Assembly: GCF_053078305.1 (NCBI RefSeq)
Contig: NZ_CP166879.1
Strand: one strand, 5' to 3'
Length of the DNA stretch: 64,000 bases
Below the pieces are notes generated by a model, which did not search any database, was not told the origin of the DNA, and saw nothing but the letters and a program-made list of their open reading frames with translations. Made by a program: the position numbers and the translations under genes. Of this stretch, positions 6,339-25,727 are shown piece by piece. Every line of letters begins with the position of its first letter. Within the stretch, counting starts at the first letter, position 1.

Positions 6339-9300
6339 TTACCACTGCCAGCCCACACCGGCACCGACGGAGAAATTACCCCGGGTGTTCTGACCTGCAT
6401 TCAGTTTCATTATCATCTTACCGTTATCGGAGATTCGGGACACACCTATTGCAATGGCGCTTTCACCACCATATCCACCGACACCCAGCCCCATCAGACT
6501 TTTACCCGGCAGATAGGCCTGAGGTATCCCGCTCATGGCCGCAGCCGATGCGCCAACACCACGGATATCCCGGTTAAGCTCTTCCACCCGGTAGCTCAGC
6601 TGACTGAATTTATTCCCGAGAGTGTTTATCGCCTGTGTATTTCCGGCAACCTGACGGTTAGTTGCATGCAACTGACTGCCATTGACGGCATCCGTTGAAT
6701 TCGCAGACAACACACCCGGTGCCACTGACTGCAGCTGACGCTCCTGTCCCGGCTGACCAAAAGAAACCACCGCAGTATCACTTCCGGTACGTCCCGCAAC
6801 AGCCTGACCGTTCAGGGCATAAGTCCCGGTATTCGCGCGGCCAGCACGGGCATGGCTGCCAACTGCAACAGAGCCGGCAGCAGCCTGACGCGTGACTTCA
6901 GCACCATTACCCATGGCAATGCTGTTTTGTCCCCGGGAAACGGCTCCCTGTCCGACAGCAATGCTGTCACGTCCTTCCGCTTTTGCTGCCTGACCGGAAG
7001 AGGCTGCTTTAAAATACTTCGTGCCTTCACGGTTCAGCATATTCACTGCATCAGCCACATTATCCGGTGTTTTATGTACACCACCATTCACCGTTGTCTT
7101 ACCGCCACCTGCAGTTGTCAGCTCACTGAAGGTGTCAGGAGCCAGCGCTGCTTTTCCGTCTTTCCAGACAACATTATCACCGCCAGCAATTCTGGCTGCA
7201 GATGCCAGCTGGCTCCCGTTAACCGCATCCGTGGATACCGGTGACACATTTCCGGCCGCCACATTTGTCAGAACAAGAGGCTGCTCACTGCTTATTCTGA
7301 CACGGGCCGGCTCAGCCGGCGTCATTGTCAGTTTCCCGGTCGCAGCATCTTCGGTCTGTGTGTAAAAACGACCTCCAATATTGACAAGCGGGTTCCCCTG
7401 GCTGTCGGTGTACTCCACCGGAATCCCCGTCACATCAATCTCATAGCTGTAATTTCCCTTGTCATCCTTACTGATGGCTGAAACCCGGGTATTCTGTCCG
7501 TGGCGGACTTCAACTGTCTGGGAAGAAACAGCAACAGCCTCATCACCGGATTCAGTCTTCAGTGCCCAGGTCGTTGCTGCCGTTGCCTGACTGATTTCAC
7601 GGTTCAGTTGTGAAACGTTAACGGCGTCCTGGTCATTCACCCCGTCTTTCACGCCGGAAATAACCCGGCCAGCCGCATCAATACCGTTCACAGTCACTGA
7701 CGGGCCATCCTTGATGGTCAGCCCGTTTTTATCCATCCGGGTTCCGCCGACAGAAACGCTGCCGTCATCTCCCAGGCGAATGTTATCAGCGAGTCTGACC
7801 GTCAGGCTCCCGTTCTGAACAGTCGTGCTGATATTCTGCCCGTCACCACCAACCGTGATATGCTTCCCGAGAGACGTGTTCACCTTGCTTCCGTCATCCG
7901 CCTGCAGACCAAAGCCGGTATTCACCAGTGCCGCACTGCTGTCACGGAGAGCATTTTTCAGGTCACCGATATTGGCCGCATTATTCAGAACATCTCCACC
8001 GGCGTCAGCAAGCGCAGTGCCGTTCAGACCACTGGCCACACTGGTTATCTGATTTCCACCGTTATTCAGGCCGGAGCCGGTAAGGGAAACCGTATTCCCC
8101 TGACCACCGCCCGCAGCAGGTGTTGTGATTGTGATGCCTTTATCATTAACTGTTGTTATCTGCCCACCTGTACCAAAAACCGCGCTGGCCAAATCACGGA
8201 GGTTTCTGGTCATCCTCACCAGAAGCCCGCCATTATCATTATCAACCCGGATATTGCCGTCAGTCACTTCAGCATTCTTCTCTGCACCACCTTTGATGGT
8301 CAGTTTTTCATTCAGTTTTTTATGAATAACCTTTCCGTCATCACCCTCAAAAGAAAGACCGTCATTCATGGTCGCCAGCTCTTCTGCCGGTGATTTTCCA
8401 TCCGGGGTATAAGTCAGACGTGTCTTCGTGGTACCGGCAGCATCTGTTAATCCACCTTTGCCTGCATTAACAGCAATGGTTGCTGACGCAGACTTTCCAC
8501 CCGCAGCAGGCGAGGATGTCAGTTTAATCGTGCCATCCTGACCATTCAGACTCACAGCCTCCTTACCATCAGCCCCGTTAACTTTGATGCTGCCGGGAGT
8601 ATTATTGCTCCCAACGCTCAGGTCATTATTCAGGGATATTTTTAACCCCTTATCCCCATTGGTGATGGCTGTGGTGGTGATATTGCTGTCCCCGGATACT
8701 TTAATCGCCTGCCCAAGAGACTGTTTCACTTCCTTATCATCAGAGTCTTTCAGTGCGAAACCTGCACCCTGCATACTGGAGGACACACCATCAATTGCCG
8801 TTTTCAGGTCTGCAACACTGGCGGCATTTTTCATCTCTTTATCAGTATTCGTTAACGTCGAAAGTTCCTTACCTTCCAGTCCACTTGCCACACCACTGAT
8901 AACAACACCATTTTGTCCGGCACCATTACCGCCTGACAATGTCAGCTTATTACCTTCGGATGAGAGCGTTACACTTCCGTTATTTCCTTTTCCATTCAGC
9001 TGAACACTGCTGAATGACGGAGTATCAATAACAGAGAATGTAAAATCACCACCACTTTGTTTCACGCTGAGATTTTTACCGGCTTTCAGCGTAACCATAT
9101 CACCGGGTTTTATCAGTGTTTCTGTTCCCTGACCATTTCCCTCGATAACACCACCGGTATCTTTATCCGCTTTAATTTTCCAGCCAGACTGGTTTATGGC
9201 ATCAGCAATGTTTTTCGCAGTAACAAGTTTATCGCCATCACCATTGTTTACTGTAATCTTCCCGTTACCACCATTTACAGGCAACGAAGCTGTCTCTGCT

Positions 9301-10670
9301 GAAATCTCCAGTTTATCTCCAGCCACCTGGGTTTTTATTGGGCCTTTGCCAGTGATTTCGACATTGTCACCAAGACTCTTCGTCAGCGTCTTACCATCTC
9401 CACCTTTAATTTTGATGGCATCATTTTTTATTTCATTTTTCAGCGTTGTTCCGTCAATCGTCATTCCTTTATCATTAACAGTAACTGCAATATCTCCATC
9501 ACCTTTAACAGTTAAAGTGTTACCATTCTTATTATCCTTCCCACCATTAATAGTCGCAGAACCTCCCTTATCATCCTTTAGCGTCCACGTCGGATTAATG
9601 GCATCAAGGTCATCTTTCAGTGTCTTCGCTATCGCATATAACTGACTACCGTTAATGGCATCTGTACTTGTGTCAGAAATCGCACCCGCCCCCACGTTAA
9701 CAATCTGACGCTCTTTACCCGCATCACCAACAGATACTACTGATGCTGCGTTATTTCCGGCAAAGCCACTATATGTGACTTCCGCGCCTCTTTTAGTTCT
9801 GACCTTAGCCTCTGTTACTTTTTGTGCCTGCTTATCCCTGGAGTCAGCGCCGATGGACACGTTCCCCTTTGCGACAGTAACGGTTGCTCCATGCCCCAGG
9901 GCAACCGTTTCATTCTGAGCGGCATTTGCCTCTGAACCAACAGCAAGAGCATCGTTTTTATTTGCAGAGGACTGACTACCAACGGCCAGAGCATTACCGG
10001 CATTAGCCAGCGCATTAAAACCAACCGCAGTCGCCATATCCCCTTTAGCTTCCGCCGTGGCTCCAATTGCATTCGAGGCCATCCCCTCAGCAGAACTCAC
10101 CGAACCAAGCGATACTGACAATTCGCCTTTAGCAAAAGTTCTGCTGCCCAGCGCAATACTGCCATCCCCCTGCGCTTCCGATGCAAGATAGCCATTCTCT
10201 ATTTTTTCCCGACCATAAGTCTTACCATGCAAAGGAGTTAAATCATCCCCACCAATAACAATAGCCCCCCATCCGGTAGCTTTGGTATCGCCACCTATTG
10301 CAATTGACTGTTCTTTAGTTGCTTTCGTTTTCGCTCCTATCGCAATAGACTCGCCTGTGTACAAACCTTCCTTCGTGCTAATGTCACCTCCAGCCTCTGC
10401 ACTGGTACCAATCGCGATAGAGTTACGTCCTTCAGCCACCGGTGATTTATGGTCGAAATTAATTCCCTTTGATTCATCTTTTGCTGTAAATTTCGTTGTA
10501 CCTATTTCAATGCTCTTCCAGTCATCGCCATAGACATCATGGCCAAGGCTGGTTTCATCAACTTCAACAGTTAACTTATTTGTATCTGCCTGAGCACTGA
10601 CCTGTGATATGGATGCCGGATTAAGAACAAGTGATATGGCTATACAGATATGTTTTTTTCTGAGGTTCAT
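6339..10670 (-). CDS. Trimeric autotransporter adhesin (type Vc, YadA-like anchor)
   Basis: 1443 aa from ATG at 10670 (AAGGAG RBS); repeated neck/head motifs (DAINGSQL, DAVNGSQL, NVSQLN); C-terminal anchor ending GNFSVGAGVGWQW. Confidence 0.9.
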   Translation of the reverse strand: MNLRKKHICIAISLVLNPASISQVSAQADTNKLTVEVDETSLGHDVYGDDWKSIEIGTTKFTAKDESKGINFDHKSPVAEGRNSIAIGTSAEAGGDISTKEGLYTGESIAIGAKTKATKEQSIAIGGDTKATGWGAIVIGGDDLTPLHGKTYGREKIENGYLASEAQGDGSIALGSRTFAKGELSVSLGSVSSAEGMASNAIGATAEAKGDMATAVGFNALANAGNALAVGSQSSANKNDALAVGSEANAAQNETVALGHGATVTVAKGNVSIGADSRDKQAQKVTEAKVRTKRGAEVTYSGFAGNNAASVVSVGDAGKERQIVNVGAGAISDTSTDAINGSQLYAIAKTLKDDLDAINPTWTLKDDKGGSATINGGKDNKNGNTLTVKGDGDIAVTVNDKGMTIDGTTLKNEIKNDAIKIKGGDGKTLTKSLGDNVEITGKGPIKTQVAGDKLEISAETASLPVNGGNGKITVNNGDGDKLVTAKNIADAINQSGWKIKADKDTGGVIEGNGQGTETLIKPGDMVTLKAGKNLSVKQSGGDFTFSVIDTPSFSSVQLNGKGNNGSVTLSSEGNKLTLSGGNGAGQNGVVISGVASGLEGKELSTLTNTDKEMKNAASVADLKTAIDGVSSSMQGAGFALKDSDDKEVKQSLGQAIKVSGDSNITTTAITNGDKGLKISLNNDLSVGSNNTPGSIKVNGADGKEAVSLNGQDGTIKLTSSPAAGGKSASATIAVNAGKGGLTDAAGTTKTRLTYTPDGKSPAEELATMNDGLSFEGDDGKVIHKKLNEKLTIKGGAEKNAEVTDGNIRVDNDNGGLLVRMTRNLRDLASAVFGTGGQITTVNDKGITITTPAAGGGQGNTVSLTGSGLNNGGNQITSVASGLNGTALADAGGDVLNNAANIGDLKNALRDSSAALVNTGFGLQADDGSKVNTSLGKHITVGGDGQNISTTVQNGSLTVRLADNIRLGDDGSVSVGGTRMDKNGLTIKDGPSVTVNGIDAAGRVISGVKDGVNDQDAVNVSQLNREISQATAATTWALKTESGDEAVAVSSQTVEVRHGQNTRVSAISKDDKGNYSYEIDVTGIPVEYTDSQGNPLVNIGGRFYTQTEDAATGKLTMTPAEPARVRISSEQPLVLTNVAAGNVSPVSTDAVNGSQLASAARIAGGDNVVWKDGKAALAPDTFSELTTAGGGKTTVNGGVHKTPDNVADAVNMLNREGTKYFKAASSGQAAKAEGRDSIAVGQGAVSRGQNSIAMGNGAEVTRQAAAGSVAVGSHARAGRANTGTYALNGQAVAGRTGSDTAVVSFGQPGQERQLQSVAPGVLSANSTDAVNGSQLHATNRQVAGNTQAINTLGNKFSQLSYRVEELNRDIRGVGASAAAMSGIPQAYLPGKSLMGLGVGGYGGESAIAIGVSRISDNGKMIMKLNAGQNTRGNFSVGAGVGWQW

Positions 10671-18637: not shown

Positions 18638-19894
18638 ATGGATTTCTTTCGTTTTTTGATGAGCGATGTACTTTCCGAACCCGCAGTGCTGGTCGGTTTA
18701 ATCGCCCTGATTGGCCTGATTGCACAGAAAAAACCGGTAACCGAATGCATTAAAGGTACCGTCAAGACCATTATGGGGTTTGTGATTTTAGGCGCAGGGG
18801 CGGGTTTAGTTGTGTCGTCACTGAGTGACTTCGCAAACATTTTCCAGTATGCCTTTGGTATTCAGGGTGTAGTGCCGAACAATGAAGCCATTGTTTCCGT
18901 AGCGCAGAAAAGCTTCGGGAAAGAAATGGCGATGATTATGTTCTTTGCGATGGTTATCAACATTATGATTGCCCGTTTCACACCGTGGAAATTTATCTTC
19001 CTGACCGGTCATCACACGTTGTTTATGTCGATGATGGTAGCGGTAATTCTGGCAACAGCAGGCATGACCGGCATTACGCTTATAGCCGTTGGCTCTTTGG
19101 TTGTTGGCGTGGCAATGGTCTTTTTCCCGGCTATTGCGCATCCGTACATGAAGAAAGTGACCGGTTCTGATGACGTTGCCATCGGCCACTTCTCAACATT
19201 ATCTTATGTATTGGCCGGTTTCATCGGCAGCAAGTTTGGTAATAAAGAGCACTCGACTGAAGACATGAATGTGCCGAAAAGTCTGCTGTTCTTGCGCGAC
19301 ACGCCGGTTGCTATCTCTTTTACCATGAGCATAATTTTCCTGGTGACGTGCCTGTTTGCGGGTGCAGATGCGGTGAAAGAGCTTAGCGGTGGTAAAAACT
19401 GGTTCATGTTCTCTATCATGCAATCCATTACCTTCGCAGCTGGCGTGTACATCATTCTGCAGGGTGTGCGCATGGTGATTGCGGAGATTGTCCCGGCATT
19501 CAAAGGTATTTCAGACAAGCTGGTTCCGAATGCCAGACCTGCTCTCGATTGCCCGGTCGTCTTCCCTTACGCACCTAACGCTGTACTGGTTGGTTTCCTG
19601 AGTAGCTTTGCTGCAGGTTTAATCGGTATGTTCACGTTGTATTTGCTGAACATGATCGTGATTATTCCTGGTGTGGTGCCGCACTTCTTCGTAGGTGCAG
19701 CTGCAGGGGTATTCGGTAATGCAACGGGTGGACGTCGTGGTGCGATTTTGGGTGCCTTCGCTCAGGGCTTGCTTATTACCTTCCTGCCAGTATTCTTATT
19801 GCCTGTGCTGGGTAACATTGGTTTTGCTAACACCACCTTCAGTGATGCTGACTTTGGCGCACTGGGTATTTTGTTAGGGATTATCGTTCGCTAA
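18638..19894 (+). CDS. PTS enzyme IIC permease (UlaA/SgaT family)
   Basis: 418 aa polytopic membrane protein immediately after IIB. Confidence 0.9.
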   Translation: MDFFRFLMSDVLSEPAVLVGLIALIGLIAQKKPVTECIKGTVKTIMGFVILGAGAGLVVSSLSDFANIFQYAFGIQGVVPNNEAIVSVAQKSFGKEMAMIMFFAMVINIMIARFTPWKFIFLTGHHTLFMSMMVAVILATAGMTGITLIAVGSLVVGVAMVFFPAIAHPYMKKVTGSDDVAIGHFSTLSYVLAGFIGSKFGNKEHSTEDMNVPKSLLFLRDTPVAISFTMSIIFLVTCLFAGADAVKELSGGKNWFMFSIMQSITFAAGVYIILQGVRMVIAEIVPAFKGISDKLVPNARPALDCPVVFPYAPNAVLVGFLSSFAAGLIGMFTLYLLNMIVIIPGVVPHFFVGAAAGVFGNATGGRRGAILGAFAQGLLITFLPVFLLPVLGNIGFANTTFSDADFGALGILLGIIVR

Positions 19895-19907
19895 TATTTT
19901 GATGACA

Positions 19908-19960
19908 TTAATATCCTCCAGGATTTCAGGAACGTGGAGGATATTAATTCCTCTTATTTT
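19908..19960 (+). terminator. Rho-independent terminator after the PTS operon
   Basis: Perfect 13-bp inverted repeat TTAATATCCTCCA...TGGAGGATATTAA followed by a T-rich tract. Confidence 0.7.
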
Positions 19961-20260
19961 CTCCATTTTTCTTTCTTCCAGTCAGGACTGCATCTGATTA
20001 ATCGTAAGCGCTCCGGGAAGTACGTCGCGTAAGGATTATTTTACAGCTGAGAAGTTTCAGTGCAGCAGTTCATGCACACGGTTCGACGGCTAGTCATTGA
20101 TCTTCATAATTACCTCGCGTAAAAAACGGGGTAAGGCCGCTCATCCAGCGTCATCTCCACAGGTAATAATTCAACGCCAATGCCAGAAGAGTTCCTTACC
20201 GGAAGACGCCGTGATATACGCCCTTTGATCGTAAGCGTCAACGGAGCACCGTATTGACGC

Positions 20261-21853
20261 TTATTTATTGGTGAGTACTACGTTCCATGGCAAGAGTTCA
20301 TCAACTCGGTTGGAAGGCCATTCCGGCAGTACGCTCAGGATATGGCGCAGATACGCTTCCGGATCGATACCGTTCAGACGGCAGGTGCCGATCAGCCCGT
20401 ACAACAGTGCTCCACGCTCGCCGCCGTGATCGCTGCCAAAGAACATAAAGTTTTTCTTTCCGAGACAGACTGCACGAAGCGCTCTTTCCGCAGCATTATT
20501 ATCCGCCTCCGCCAGACCGTCATCACTGTAATAACAGAGGGCATCCCACTGATTCAGTACATAGCTGAACGCTTCGCCCAGTCTGGATTTTTTCGACAGC
20601 GTACCATTCTTCTCCACCATCCATTCATGCAGCGACGTCAGTAACACTTTGCTTCGCTGCTGCCTGACGGAAAGACGCTCTGACTCCGGTAATCCCCGTA
20701 TTTCATCCTCGATGGCGTACAGTTCACTGATTCGCTTCAGGGCTTCTTCTGCCTTCGCACTTTTGCTGCTGATGTATACATCGTGGATTTTTCGCCGGGC
20801 ATGGGCCCAGCACGCAACTTCTGTCAGTGCACCACCTTCACGTTCTGCACTGAACAACCTGTCGTAACCTGTGAACGCATCCGCCTGCAGGATACCCCGG
20901 AAGGGGCGGAGGTGTTGCTCCGGGTGTTTCCCCTGCCGGTTCGGCGAGTACGCGAACCAGACCGCTGGAGGAGATGACGAACCCACATTGCGATCATCCC
21001 GGACATACGTCCAGATACGCCCTGTTTTCGCCTTTTTCTGACCCGGTGCCAGTACCTTTACCGGTGTGTCATCAGTGTGAACCTTGCGGGTGTTCATTAC
21101 ATAACGGTACAGGGCATCATTCACCGGTGTCATTAACTGGCAGCACGCGTCAACCCAGTTGGAGAGTAAGGCCCGGCTCAGTTCGACACCCTTGCGGGCA
21201 AAGATTTCACTCTGACGATACAGTGGCAGATGTTCGCAGTATTTTCCCGTTAACACGCGGGCAAGTAATCCGGGGCCCGCGATACCACGCTCTATCGGGC
21301 GGGACGGCGCCGGTGCTTCAACGATGCAGTCACATTTTGTACAGGCTTTTTTTACCCGTTCTGTGCGGATCACTTTCAGGGCGCTGCTCACCAGTTCCAG
21401 TTGTTCTGCACTGACTTCCCCCAGATAATCCAGCTCACCGCCACACTCCGGGCAACAGCTTTCTTCAGACTCCAGACGGTGTATTTCACGGGGAAGGTGT
21501 GCCGGTAACGGACGACGATGGCGCGACTGTCGCAACTGGCGGGGAACCTGTGGATCGTCTTCCCGCCCACTGTAACGATCGCTGTCCTGTTCGCGTTGTT
21601 TCAGCAGGGCCTCAGCCTGTTCAACTTCACGACGCAGTTTTTCAGAACGGGTACCGAACAGCATCCGGCGCAGTTTTTCTATCTGAGCCCGCAGATGTTC
21701 TATTTCCCGTTCATCTTCTTCGATCTTTTCTTCGGCACGTGCCAGTGCAGAGCGCAGGAAGGCCTCCGTCTCTTCAACCAGACTCAGTTGCTGGTCTTTC
21801 TGACGGAGCTGGCTTTCCAGTTCTGCAATGCGAATGAGGTATTTCTGACTCAT
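20261..21853 (-). CDS. IS66-family transposase (TnpC / Orf3)
   Basis: 530 aa; N-terminal coiled-coil/leucine zipper and zinc-finger-like CxxC pairs (CPECG, CTKCDC) typical of IS66 transposases. Confidence 0.9.
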   Translation of the reverse strand: MSQKYLIRIAELESQLRQKDQQLSLVEETEAFLRSALARAEEKIEEDEREIEHLRAQIEKLRRMLFGTRSEKLRREVEQAEALLKQREQDSDRYSGREDDPQVPRQLRQSRHRRPLPAHLPREIHRLESEESCCPECGGELDYLGEVSAEQLELVSSALKVIRTERVKKACTKCDCIVEAPAPSRPIERGIAGPGLLARVLTGKYCEHLPLYRQSEIFARKGVELSRALLSNWVDACCQLMTPVNDALYRYVMNTRKVHTDDTPVKVLAPGQKKAKTGRIWTYVRDDRNVGSSSPPAVWFAYSPNRQGKHPEQHLRPFRGILQADAFTGYDRLFSAEREGGALTEVACWAHARRKIHDVYISSKSAKAEEALKRISELYAIEDEIRGLPESERLSVRQQRSKVLLTSLHEWMVEKNGTLSKKSRLGEAFSYVLNQWDALCYYSDDGLAEADNNAAERALRAVCLGKKNFMFFGSDHGGERGALLYGLIGTCRLNGIDPEAYLRHILSVLPEWPSNRVDELLPWNVVLTNK

Positions 21854-21883
21854 GACCGTTTTTATAATGCGGTCAGGATTTTT

Positions 21884-22234
21884 TTACAACATTGTCAGTG
21901 AGTTACGGCGGGATGTTTTTGGCTGACGCCAGTCCAGCTTATCGAGGAGCATTGCCAGTTGCGAGCGGGTAATGGATACCTTGCCGTCACGTACCGCAGG
22001 CCAGATAAACTGGCCTTCCTCCAGGCGTTTAGTGAACAGGCACAGACCATCAGCATCAGCCCAAAGAATTTTAACGGTGTCACCCCGTCGGCCACGGAAG
22101 ATAAACAGGTGACCGGAGAAGGGATTATCATTCAGCACATGTTGTACCTGTTCTCCCAGTCCGTTGAAGGATTTACGCATATCGGTAACGCCGGCAACGA
22201 GCCAGATACGGGTACCTGATGGGAGTGAGATCAT
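21884..22234 (-). CDS. IS66-family Orf2 (TnpB) accessory protein
   Basis: 116 aa, MISLPSGTRIWLVAGVTDMRKSFNGL...; overlaps orf1 by 4 nt. Confidence 0.9.
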   Translation of the reverse strand: MISLPSGTRIWLVAGVTDMRKSFNGLGEQVQHVLNDNPFSGHLFIFRGRRGDTVKILWADADGLCLFTKRLEEGQFIWPAVRDGKVSITRSQLAMLLDKLDWRQPKTSRRNSLTML

Positions 22235-22656
22235 CTTCCCCTCCCGGTCAGTTCACGGATCAACACCGTGAGCAGCTCTGGCGATGGATTTTCCAGCGTC
22301 ATGTTACCGTGACGGAATTCCACCTTGCAGGAGCTGGCACTGACTCTGGTCTGAGAGGTAGTGGATAAAGATGGCGCAATGGCCACCACAGGTTCTTTCT
22401 GCTCATCCGGCGTTATTTCTACAGGTAATAATTCAACGCCAGTGTCAGAAGAGGTCGTTACCGGAAGACGCCGCGAAACACGCCCTTCGTTCTGCCAGAG
22501 CCTGAGCCATTTGAACAGGAGGTTATCATTGATATCGTGTTCCCGGGCGATACGGGCAACAGAGGCTCCTGGTTGCAAAGCCAGTTTAACCATTTGAAGT
22601 TTAAAATTATTTGAAAATGATCTGCGGGGTTCTGCGGATAATGTTTTTTGCTCCAT
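22231..22656 (-). CDS. IS66-family Orf1 (TnpA) accessory protein
   Basis: 141 aa, MEQKTLSAEPRRSFSNNFKLQMVKLALQPGASVARIAREHDINDNLLFKW... Confidence 0.85.
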   Translation of the reverse strand: MEQKTLSAEPRRSFSNNFKLQMVKLALQPGASVARIAREHDINDNLLFKWLRLWQNEGRVSRRLPVTTSSDTGVELLPVEITPDEQKEPVVAIAPSLSTTSQTRVSASSCKVEFRHGNMTLENPSPELLTVLIRELTGRGR

Positions 22657-22708
22657 AACAGGCGTCCACTAGTTTGAAAAGGTGGGCACCTACGTTACCA
22701 ATACTGGC

Positions 22709-23003
22709 TTAATGGCTACATACGGCAGTCGGTTTACGCTTACCTTTGATCAGCCAGAGCCTGAGCCATTTGAACAGAAGATTATCATTGATATCATGCT
22801 CCCGGGCAATACGGGCAACAAAAACCCTTGGTTGTAAAGCCAGTTTAACCATTTGAAGTTTAAACTCATTTGAAAATGACCTGCGGGGTTCTGCGGATAA
22901 TGTTTTTTGTTCCATAACAGGCATCCACTAGTTTGAAAAGGTGGGCACCTACGTTACCAATACTGGCTTAATGGCTACATACGACGGTCGGTTTACGCTT
23001 ACC
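22709..23003 (-). mobile_element. Partial tandem duplicate of the IS66 end (5' part of orf1 plus terminal repeat)
   Basis: Sequence 22925-23003 nearly repeats 22657-22745; ORF 22709..22924 encodes a truncated Orf1 copy (MPVMEQKTLSAEPRRSFSNEFKLQMVKLALQP...). Confidence 0.7.
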
Positions 23004-23045
23004 AGAAAACTAATAGTGCTATATGCAATTTTTAATATTCAGACT

Positions 23046-25727
23046 TTAGCCTGACAGGCCTGACAAAAACGCGCCCAACTTCCCTTCTATATCACTGTCT
23101 ATAGTACGTAATCTTAGCAATGGCAGACCACATTTCTTCAGTATACTGTTTTTAAGTTCATCACGTTCAGCCTGGACACTGGTCAGATGATAGCCTCCAT
23201 CCACTTCAATAACCCCTAATGGAGTCTTCCCGACCTTATAGTAAACAACAAAGTCACAACTGGCCCGATTACGCATGAATAACAGTTCACGGTGAGTAAA
23301 ATCTCCCCGCTCCAGCAACACCAACTGATTCAGCGCTATTTGTGAATGAAACATCATGCTCCGATAACTATCCTGCGACAGGATATCCCGCAACAGGCAG
23401 GCCACAATCTGTTCTGACTTAAAGCGTGAATCATCTGAATTCAATCTACTATTCAGTCGTTCCAGTGATTTGTCATACTCACTGTACAGCAAATCAAATG
23501 CTGATATCACCGGGCTCTCGAAAATCTCTCCGTCATCAGCGTAGTATCTGATGTAACGAATCAGTGCCGCAATATGTCCAGCGTGGCGTTCAAATACATC
23601 ATTACCAGTCACCAACGTAAATTTGTTTCGGGCCCTTGAAACAGCGACATTCACCAGTTCAGGATTATCAACAAACGCGATATTCCGACTTTGCTGGCTG
23701 CTGCGTTTCTTATCCAGCACAGTGGAAAACACAATTTCATCGCACTCCCGTCCCTGAAATTTATGCACCGTCGATTTCACAAAATCAGCGGGCAGCACTG
23801 TTTCAGCCAGATTAACCTGTGCATTATATGGGGCGATATATCCCCTGCTACTTTCCTCATCCCAGTAATGTCCTTCCAGAGATTCAAGCTCCCTGAGATT
23901 TGAAAAATTACGGGTATGGTTTCCTTTTGCCGTGATGATCAGAGATAATGAGGCTTCACCTGAATCAAGCGTTAGCGGTATCAGAGCATTATCATAAAAC
24001 TGCTTATTACAAAATTGAATGATTTTAGGATGACAGCGATAATGCTCTTTAAGAAGAGTTACTGGCACCATATTCCTGAACGACATACAAACCGAATCAA
24101 GTAGACTATATTTCTCACAATTATAGTATTCTGCCGGTGGAGATGGGCTGTTCGGGAGTAATACAGGAACATGTGGAAGTTGCTTTCGATCCCCTACAAC
24201 GATTACATTACGGGCACATCCTAGTCCCAGAATGCCCGGAACAATATCCTGCTGTGAGGCTTCATCAATAATCACATAATCAAGAAGAGCCCCCTTACCG
24301 ATAGAGTTAATAATAGAATGCGTGCTGCTACCAATAACCGGAAAACGCTTTATAAAACGGTTAAATTCATCCCTGTATGTCTCTGCCGAGAATGAATTTC
24401 TTGTTGAAATATTTCTTCGCAGATGTTGTTTTAAATAAAGCACAGACCATGATGTCAGGCGCTCCAGTAAAATTTTAAAATCAGATTCCTTTAATACTTT
24501 CTCATATTCATTCAAAGAAATTTGTTTTTCCCGGATGGATTTTTCATAATAAGAAAGCTGAAGAGAAGTAAATAGTGCCAGCCTTCTCTCCGGAATCACC
24601 AATGGTTTGACTTTCAGTATCCTGAAGTTTAACAACAAATCAATTCTGTTTCTGAATCCAATCCGCCTGTCAGAAAGGTAATGAATATAAGCCATCAGGT
24701 CAGTTGTTTTTCGTGAGGAAAGTCGGTATTTGTGAGAAAAAAGCTCCTCCGGTCGAAGATTCTGACTCTGCCATTGCTGCAGGTATTTATACTCAACACT
24801 CAGTTCATTAATTTCTGCTTTTAACGAAGCAACCTGGTTGATAGCATTCAGGTGTTTTTTCACTTGTTGAAGTACATCATCAATCATATTTGCAGACGGT
24901 GAGTCAGGTAAGACTTCCTCAGAACGCGAAATCGACGTTGAAAAAAACTGTTGTCTGTTCTCCGTACTTCCCAGTCGTGCCACCACATATCCCAGTCGTT
25001 GTTTGTCCATTTTTTCATAAACATTACTGACAGCTGAGTTATTATTGGACAAAATTGCCACTGTTTTATTCTGAATTAATATATTGGCAACAATATTGAG
25101 AATAGTCTGTGTTTTACCTGTCCCAGGTGGTCCTTCAATAACTGAAATCTGTGAGGAAAATGCCCGTTCAACCGCCATTAACTGACTCTCATTCAGGCCA
25201 AACGGAAAAATCAACCCCCATGGCGAATCACGTTTTTTACTCTGTCCTGAACAGTATGCATGCAAGGCGGTATCCGGATGAGGAACTATTTTCTTTATCT
25301 GTCTGAGGATATTCTCATCGATATTTTTATTATTACCTCGAGCATAAAAAACACGTTCGTCAGCCACCCTGCACAAGTAATTAAACACGGCATGCTCTGT
25401 AAATGCTGAACACTGTTGAAAGTCAAGTCCGGTCGTTTTCATGATGTAGGGTCGTTCGCTCTCACGGTAATAAACAGCAGCATATTTATCACCATAGATA
25501 ATAACCCGTTCAGCCCGGGATGTTACAGCGTTCCCTTTCCTTTCGAGGAAAACATTTCGCAAAATTACAGTTGGCGTTATCTGACATACAGAAAGCGGAC
25601 GAGTATATTTTTTCCCGCTGCGAAAATGACAGGTCAGCATAACCTCTCCGTCATCATTTCCAGCCCACAGAGTCCAGTCGGTAATTTTATGAGTCTTATT
25701 TTCACCGTCAACACAAATCGTGACCAT
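23046..25727 (-). CDS. Superfamily-1 helicase fused to a C-terminal PD-(D/E)xK (DUF2726-like) nuclease domain; candidate defence protein
   Basis: 893 aa; Walker A GPPGTGKTQT, Walker B/motif II VIIDEASQ, further SF1 Upf1/DNA2-like motifs (VGDRKQLPHV, HYRCHPKIIQF, STVHKFQGRECD, VAVSRARNKF); C-terminal VIEVDGGYH...ERDELK...GLPLLRL; N-terminal ~180 aa unassigned. Confidence 0.75.
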   Translation of the reverse strand: MVTICVDGENKTHKITDWTLWAGNDDGEVMLTCHFRSGKKYTRPLSVCQITPTVILRNVFLERKGNAVTSRAERVIIYGDKYAAVYYRESERPYIMKTTGLDFQQCSAFTEHAVFNYLCRVADERVFYARGNNKNIDENILRQIKKIVPHPDTALHAYCSGQSKKRDSPWGLIFPFGLNESQLMAVERAFSSQISVIEGPPGTGKTQTILNIVANILIQNKTVAILSNNNSAVSNVYEKMDKQRLGYVVARLGSTENRQQFFSTSISRSEEVLPDSPSANMIDDVLQQVKKHLNAINQVASLKAEINELSVEYKYLQQWQSQNLRPEELFSHKYRLSSRKTTDLMAYIHYLSDRRIGFRNRIDLLLNFRILKVKPLVIPERRLALFTSLQLSYYEKSIREKQISLNEYEKVLKESDFKILLERLTSWSVLYLKQHLRRNISTRNSFSAETYRDEFNRFIKRFPVIGSSTHSIINSIGKGALLDYVIIDEASQQDIVPGILGLGCARNVIVVGDRKQLPHVPVLLPNSPSPPAEYYNCEKYSLLDSVCMSFRNMVPVTLLKEHYRCHPKIIQFCNKQFYDNALIPLTLDSGEASLSLIITAKGNHTRNFSNLRELESLEGHYWDEESSRGYIAPYNAQVNLAETVLPADFVKSTVHKFQGRECDEIVFSTVLDKKRSSQQSRNIAFVDNPELVNVAVSRARNKFTLVTGNDVFERHAGHIAALIRYIRYYADDGEIFESPVISAFDLLYSEYDKSLERLNSRLNSDDSRFKSEQIVACLLRDILSQDSYRSMMFHSQIALNQLVLLERGDFTHRELLFMRNRASCDFVVYYKVGKTPLGVIEVDGGYHLTSVQAERDELKNSILKKCGLPLLRLRTIDSDIEGKLGAFLSGLSG

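Follow-up and report, generated by a model that had tools for sequence, protein, structure and literature searches.

Canonical insertion sequences (ISs) of the IS66 family, such as IS66 and IS679, are about 2.5 kb long and carry three genes in the order tnpA-tnpB-tnpC, with an ATGA overlap. TnpC is a DDE transposase with zinc-finger and leucine-zipper regions, the inverted repeats start with GTAAGCG, and the target-site duplication (TSD) is 8 bp long. The insertion biology of the family has reportedly been described by Han et al. (2001, J Bacteriol 183:4296) and Gourbeyre et al. (2010, Res Microbiol 161:136). Nested IS insertions, or IS "graveyards", occur at the borders of variable regions in E. 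coli and Shigella.

The locus described here, part of a 64-kb window (the whole stretch of DNA that was analysed), shares with such graveyards both an IS lying within the remnant of another and a position bordering a variable region. It differs in that guest and host are both IS66-family members and the gene hit is the homologous one, which creates a pseudo-tandem repeat. We put the probability at about 95% that the structure is a complete ISEc23-type element nested in the tnpA gene (tnpA′) of an older IS66-family remnant. The structure as a whole is an ordinary nested transposon insertion and so belongs to already known biology; what is corrected here is only the earlier reading of it as a tandem duplicate. 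On one side the locus is bordered by a PTS operon with a ulaA-like IIC gene, and on the other by a gene for an 893-residue helicase, with T6SS genes beyond.

The inner element

The inner element has the following features, all on the minus strand.

20231-22743, minus: complete ISEc23-type IS66-family element, IRL to IRR, 2513 bp
22720-22743, minus: IRL, GTAAGCGTAAACCGACTGCCGTAT..., identical to that of the ISEc23 reference copy
22231-22656, minus: tnpA, accessory HTH protein of 141 residues; Pfam HTH_Tnp_1 (PF01527), 7.7e-15
21884-22234, minus: tnpB, 116 residues; Pfam TnpB_IS66 (PF05717), 1.1e-36; NCBIfam IS66_TnpB, 121 bits
20261-21853, minus: tnpC, DDE transposase of 530 residues; Pfam LZ_Tnp_IS66, zf-IS66, DDE_Tnp_IS66 and DDE_Tnp_IS66_C
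20231-20254, minus: IRR, ending ...CGTTGACGCTTAC, from sequence comparison
22744-22751, minus: left copy of the 8-bp TSD, GATCAAAG in minus-strand reading (CTTTGATC on the plus strand)
20223-20230, minus: right copy of the 8-bp TSD, again GATCAAAG in minus-strand reading (CTTTGATC on the plus strand)

The three open reading frames are intact and all have full-length IS66-family matches in Pfam and NCBIfam, which bears out the earlier note's description of an intact three-ORF IS66-family element. TnpA scored 86 bits against NCBIfam IS66_ISRel24_TnpA (cut-off 74), and for the accessory genes tnpA and tnpB the models NF033819 and NF047595 both scored above their own cut-offs. TnpC matches DDE_Tnp_IS66 (PF03050) at 3e-97 over profile positions 1-283 of 284, and NCBIfam transpos_IS66 (NF033517) at 448 bits against a cut-off of 180. 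The 4-nt overlap between tnpA and tnpB, at 22231-22234, reads ATGA. Both inverted repeats begin with GTAAGCGT and agree at 19 of their first 24 positions, making them imperfect repeats with the GTAAGCG start, and GATCAAAG stands directly outside both termini as a perfect 8-bp duplication. The inverted repeats and TSD, which the earlier note had left to be defined, thus place the termini at 20231 and 22743. The element proper is accordingly shorter than the extent of 20150-23003 first given for it, within which the repeats are nevertheless real. Judged by its sequence, the element has the defining features of the three-ORF group of the IS66 family (DDE TnpC, tnpA and tnpB with ATGA, GTAAGCG inverted repeats and 8-bp TSD), and it is a typical member, with no difference of substance from IS66 and IS679.

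Its relatives are abundant: megablast found thousands of copies, with tnpA and tnpB, among 5,426 complete E. coli genomes, carrying the PGAP label "IS66-like element ISEc23 family transposase", and the exact 141-residue TnpA protein is known in E. coli from 186 contigs. As reference we used the PGAP-annotated ISEc23 copy on plasmid JML285_P3 (positions 301-2834, 2534 bp; L002), which aligns with 22743-20231 of the window at 98.3% nucleotide identity from end to end, with 24 mismatches and one 21-nt in-frame indel. The two share IRL, IRR, the three ORFs and the 8-bp TSD. They differ in length (2513 against 2534 bp) and in TnpC, which has 530 rather than 537 residues as a result of the 21-nt difference near codons 14-20, close to the 5′ end of tnpC. 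On this comparison the inner element is an ISEc23 isoform, a name that rests on PGAP labels and not on the ISfinder type sequence.

The same 2513-bp variant occurs at five other loci, with 0-1 mismatch in 2513 positions at each. All five copies are flanked by perfect 8-bp TSDs (GTATATAA, TTTGTTTC, CAGTATCA, CAGCCAGT and TTCCGTAC), so both termini of the element are fixed independently; no target consensus was seen across these five sites. Since the identical variant occupies six distinct sites, and an empty site corresponding to the present one exists (see below), the form with the 530-residue TnpC is probably active and able to transpose. We considered whether the shorter tnpC might be a disabling lesion and rejected this: the difference is in frame, it lies upstream of all the Pfam domains, and the variant is present at six sites. 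An apparently active copy of this kind constitutes 2.5 kb of portable homology, which may recombine with plasmid-borne copies. A promoter and terminator scan of 19800-23200 gave counts no better than those from shuffled sequence.

The divided remnant and its empty site

A repeat search and self-BLAST identified two direct repeats at the locus, both far beyond what chance can account for. The first, 22484-22742 against 22743-23001, is 259-261 nt long and aligns without gaps at 92% identity, with 21 mismatches; the second, 20139-20230 against 22401-22492, covers 92 nt at 86% identity. Self-BLAST found no further IS66 copies elsewhere in the 64-kb window. Two similarities reported in the earlier note fall inside these repeats, namely that of 22925-23003 to 22657-22745 in the longer one and an orf1-like fragment at about 20155-20225 in the shorter. 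The same note described about 260 bp, following the element, that repeat its end and the first 55 or so codons of orf1. This repeat is real, but in the element's orientation the partial copy lies upstream of the left end; it comprises an IRL, an 87-nt leader and 57 tnpA codons. The sequences outside the inner element were assigned as follows.

22752-23002, minus: left half of the outer remnant, with IRL from 23002, the 87-nt leader, the tnpA′ ATG at 22915 and codons up to the insertion site
20139-20222, minus: continuation of the outer tnpA′ past the insertion site, ISEc23 positions 257-343
20004-20138, minus: right-hand tail of the older remnant, with some 15 nt of unassigned sequence, then the final ~116 nt of an IS66-family tnpC and an IRR, ...GGAGCGCTTAC, at 20004
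22709-22924, minus: chimeric ORF that begins in the outer tnpA′, crosses the junction and enters the inner IRL, 71 residues, or 68 from the ATG at 22915

In BLAST comparisons, 23002-22743 corresponds to ISEc23 positions 1-260 (91.9% identity) and 20225-20139 to positions 257-343 (87.4%). The pieces flanking the inner IRL and IRR thus match consecutive positions of ISEc23, which identifies them as two halves of one tnpA 5′ region. When 23002-22752 and 20230-20139 are rejoined, with the insert and one copy of the TSD taken out, they match ISEc23 1-343 at 312 of 345 positions with no indel, and an ORF of 94 residues is restored which is the same as the one labelled "transposase" in L003 and L028. 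The whole remnant, from 23002 to 20004 with the insert removed, is 478 bp long, and over the 343 nt on its left it resembles ISEc23 with about 90% identity.

The uninterrupted site exists in other E. coli. A reconstructed empty site of 2481 nt has a one-piece match at 99.5% in E. coli 04-00955 (NZ_CP035498), and a 1183-nt empty-site query matched two complete genomes, VG38-53E1 among them, at 99.0% identity and 100% coverage. The empty sites in 04-00955 and VG38-53E1 have the same PTS IIC and 893-residue helicase genes as flanks. The 478-bp remnant itself is present at the empty site at 98.5% identity with zero gaps, and its 94-residue ORF is annotated as "transposase".

From the sequence comparisons we infer that the remnant came first and ISEc23 later. 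The 478-bp IS66-family remnant would already have lain between the PTS operon and the neighbouring DNA, and would have consisted of an ISEc23-like left end with about 85 genuine tnpA codons, fused to a ~116-nt end and IRR of another IS66-family element. A complete ISEc23-type element would then have transposed into codon ~57 of the remnant tnpA′, TnpC, with TnpA and TnpB, making a staggered 8-bp cut in the target, as is characteristic of the family, whose repair would have duplicated GATCAAAG. The inner IRL, leader and tnpA 5′ end would thereby have come to lie immediately behind the stretch of the remnant that is homologous to them, mimicking a 259-bp tandem repeat, with the remainder of the remnant tnpA′ reappearing beyond the inner IRR. 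The pseudo-tandem repeat would be a consequence of the target having been a homologous tnpA of 90% similarity.

The filled site was followed by means of the 68-residue junction product, which is specific to it and whose exact sequence occurs on 414 public contigs. Eight places carrying this product were retrieved. The order helicase, relic, ISEc23 is found in all eight, and the upstream T6SS genes and downstream PTS IIC gene in seven, L013 differing on both flanks. A 4.47-Mb contig (GCA_900536625.1; L009) agrees with the window at 100% over 12.2 kb, as does another contig (L015) over 9.3 kb; the support from long contigs is thus from draft or other assemblies, outside the complete RefSeq set. 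The filled junction is absent from all 5,426 complete RefSeq E. coli genomes, and it therefore marks a lineage outside that set. With 414 contigs against 0 of 5,426 complete genomes, the insertion can serve as a marker of a single lineage.

These observations bear on two other accounts of the repeat. According to the first, the "partial tandem duplicate of its own end" of the earlier note, about 260 bp of the left end were duplicated in tandem, whether through slippage, unequal crossing-over or an aberrant transposition. Two 259-nt units with 92% identity, adjacent and head to tail, speak for such an event. Against it, 21 of the 260 positions in the outer copy (8%) depart from the inner element, compared with 0-1 of 2513 in the sister copies at other loci. 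The boundary of the unit is moreover an exact IS terminus with an 8-bp TSD, the supposed duplicate resumes across the element at 20230-20139, and the outer unit stands alone and uninterrupted in other genomes. Tandem duplication calls for near-identical copies of which the extra one never occurs independently, and the opposite was found on both counts. We regard it as very improbable, and as already refuted, on the sequence comparisons, by the empty-site alleles and the colinear outer halves.

A mis-joined or expanded repeat in the assembly is less credible still. Beyond the general risk that repeats carry, nothing speaks for it, whereas the 8% difference between the copies precludes confusion of reads, and the identical structure is present in many independent assemblies, including Mb-scale contigs. 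The concern about an assembly artefact raised with the original observation proved unfounded, given the junction on 414 contigs and the 100% match on the 4.47-Mb contig. The locus is best annotated as a split IS66-family pseudogene or remnant with one complete ISEc23 within it, not as a duplicated IS, and the "transposase" ORF of 68 or 71 residues is a junction artefact.

Age and origin of the outer remnant

The remnant is both old and widespread, lying beside the PTS operon in about 2000 E. coli records. Most of these cease to match the window exactly at 23002, beyond which come aldose 1-epimerase, fucP and rbsK. These genes replace the helicase and T6SS genes in those records. The remnant ORF is frameshifted in L001, L004, L005 and L026 and has lost its start codon in L027. 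Because it is broken in several strains, it is best described as a pseudogene, and the remnant is presumably non-functional. We rejected the possibility that the ORF is a domesticated, conserved HTH regulator on account of these same frameshifts and the lost start; the intact alleles are four substitutions apart (two synonymous, two non-synonymous), too few to show selection.

The two ends of the remnant appear to have different sources. From about 20122 to 20004 the tail is 87% identical to an IS66-family right end on pF16EC0617-1 (L006) and 83.5% identical to the right ends of ISSfl3 and ISSfl4, compared with only about 70% for the right end of ISEc23. The ends of the remnant form poor inverted repeats, agreeing at 12 of 24 positions compared with 19 of 24 in the inner element, and its flanks, GTTTTCTG and GATTAATC, contain no TSD. 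Because the tail is closer to other IS66-family elements than to ISEc23, the agreement of the repeats is poor and there is no TSD, we favour an origin in which ends from two different IS66-family elements became fused. The remnant could instead be a single IS66-family element with one internal deletion, reaching from tnpA codon ~85 almost to the end of tnpC, an origin that we consider possible and somewhat less probable than not. It would account for the common orientation of the two parts, for the GTAAGCG termini at both bounds, and for the same internal junction being kept in chromosomal, IS26-bounded plasmid and pAA plasmid copies. It fits poorly with a left part about 90% identical to ISEc23 beside a right part at only ~70%, and with the fact that the IS66-family element matching the right part at 87% has a left part that does not match; the weak agreement of the outer IRL and IRR and the lack of a TSD also count against it. 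Fusion of two different ends thus remains our preferred origin.

We also considered the remnant as a mobile, MITE-like mini-IS66. This was rejected: the plasmid copies in L004 and L005 are IS26-bounded captured fragments of the chromosome that include the adjacent 3′ end of the PTS IIC gene, and did not insert independently. The copy on the pAA plasmid is truncated, which likewise counts against mobility.

Rearrangement and target choice

The earlier note saw in the partial copies a sign of repeated insertion or recombination. Repeated insertion is indeed what they record. The further suggestion, that they could mediate rearrangement of the flanking PTS and helicase genes, is plausible, and although the window itself does not show such a rearrangement, the flanks on other contigs weakly favour it. 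In L018, from assembly GCA_000752455.1, F-type tra genes lie to the left of an identical ISEc23 and the relic and PTS side to its right, with unmatched flanks (GGATATTC and GATCAAAG). L013 and L023, from assembly GCA_016773715.1, have the helicase and relic to the left and genes of an IncI-type T4SS to the right, and in L025 the DNA beyond the outer IRL is different; the tip of this IRL (23002) is a synteny breakpoint. Such flanks are the expected product of homologous recombination between IS copies, to which they point weakly; they could also have arisen by chimeric assembly where draft contigs traverse a repeat. If recombination is the cause, a chromosomal ISEc23 copy may act as a recombination site for conjugative plasmids, as suggested by L018 and L013. 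The inner 2.5-kb element would offer homology to plasmid-borne ISEc23 copies, and the 259-bp repeats, within which identical runs reach about 59 nt, could themselves recombine.

The 478-bp remnant has been involved in at least three independent IS66-family events. In the present case ISEc23 lies at remnant position ~259, in pAA plasmids another IS66-family right end adjoins remnant position 127, and in pINF102.6 an ISEc22 with an 8-bp duplication lies about 200 bp away, in the 3′ end of the PTS IIC gene. These events might suggest that IS66-family elements favour landing in or next to resident IS66-family ends, in a manner resembling homing. We consider this improbable, and self-targeting by IS66 is not supported, the five other insertions of the identical variant being outside IS66 DNA and having no target consensus. 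Remnants in dispensable DNA gather insertions simply through tolerance, which also counts against homing. At this spot or close to it, other strains have IS2, IS3, ISEc43, IS100, IS150 or IS110-family elements.

Synteny breakpoint and the neighbouring helicase-like gene

Comparison with E. coli genomes places an exact synteny breakpoint at window 23002/23003, which is the tip of the outer left inverted repeat of the older IS66-family remnant. Homology to the window stops at 23002 in most E. coli genomes, where it is followed by genes for aldose 1-epimerase, fucP and rbsK; in the window and in two complete genomes, the sequence beyond 23002 carries helicase and T6SS genes. No target-site duplication was found around the remnant. 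The lack of such a duplication would fit a past rearrangement mediated by an IS end.

The gene adjoining the remnant on this side is:

23046–25727, minus strand: SF1 helicase-like protein of 893 amino acids, with AAA_11, AAA_12 and a C-terminal DUF2726

At 41.7%, its G+C content is low compared with the 48.3% of the window, and just two of the 5,426 complete E. coli genomes have it next to the remnant. PADLOC matches of the protein, to MkoA, MkoC, PDC-S37 and Hhe, are all partial. One possible reading is a defence-type gene that stands alone.

We note that in one strain (L013, GCA_016773715.1) contig positions 1–782 contain the right-hand terminus of another IS66-family element (...CTGTACGCTTAC), which abuts the equivalent of window ~26057. 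This terminus is found immediately upstream of the helicase gene and is oriented like ISEc23, the complete element inserted in the remnant, so that IS66-family elements flank the helicase on both sides and may form a composite transposon with it. The contig runs out within this second element.

Remnant and ISEc23 copies in other contexts

Plasmids from Klebsiella pneumoniae, Citrobacter portucalensis and E. coli also carry the remnant on IS26-flanked segments (L004, 2666–3352 and 5807–6156; L005, 2666–3245), along with the 3′ terminal part of the PTS IIC gene of the chromosome. Within the PTS fragment of pINF102.6 there is a copy of ISEc22 (IS66 family), whose 8-bp duplication corresponds to window 19794–19801. 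Part of the remnant (positions 127–423, 96.6% identical) is found in pAA-EA11 (L007, 3012–3409) and related EAEC pAA plasmids, close to the aat dispersin-export genes. This copy retains the internal tnpA′/tnpC′ junction, and at remnant position 127 it is adjoined by the right-hand terminus of a further IS66-family element.

Identical copies of ISEc23 whose flanks do not match are present on public contigs L018 (GCA_000752455.1, 3414–5926), L013 (4097–6609, the same as L023) and L025 (3155). F-type tra genes border the L018 copy at one end, and the remnant and PTS border it at the other; the copy in L013/L023 lies between helicase plus remnant and IncI-type T4SS genes. These contigs represent either IS-mediated recombination between plasmid and chromosome or chimeric draft assemblies.

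In the window, the stop codon of the PTS IIC gene at 19894 is closely followed by a perfect 14-bp inverted repeat (ATTAATATCCTCCA / TGGAGGATATTAAT, 19907–19948) with a 14-nt loop, and then by a T-rich tract; this structure probably serves as the terminator of the PTS operon.

Variation within ISEc23

ISEc23 alleles at the same site encode a TnpC of either 537 residues (L008, L014) or 530 residues (the window, L009, L015). Comparison of window 21150–21853 with L008 7063–7760 gave a 21-nt indel and approximately 21 substitutions, which are concentrated within the first ~700 nt of tnpC. The pattern points to gene conversion among variants of ISEc23 more than to a simple deletion.

Some strains that share the nested structure (L010, L011 and L012) carry a 1431-bp IS110-family insertion (DEDD transposase, ~8502–9932) inside ISEc23 tnpC, at window ~20437–20450, which is a third level of nesting.
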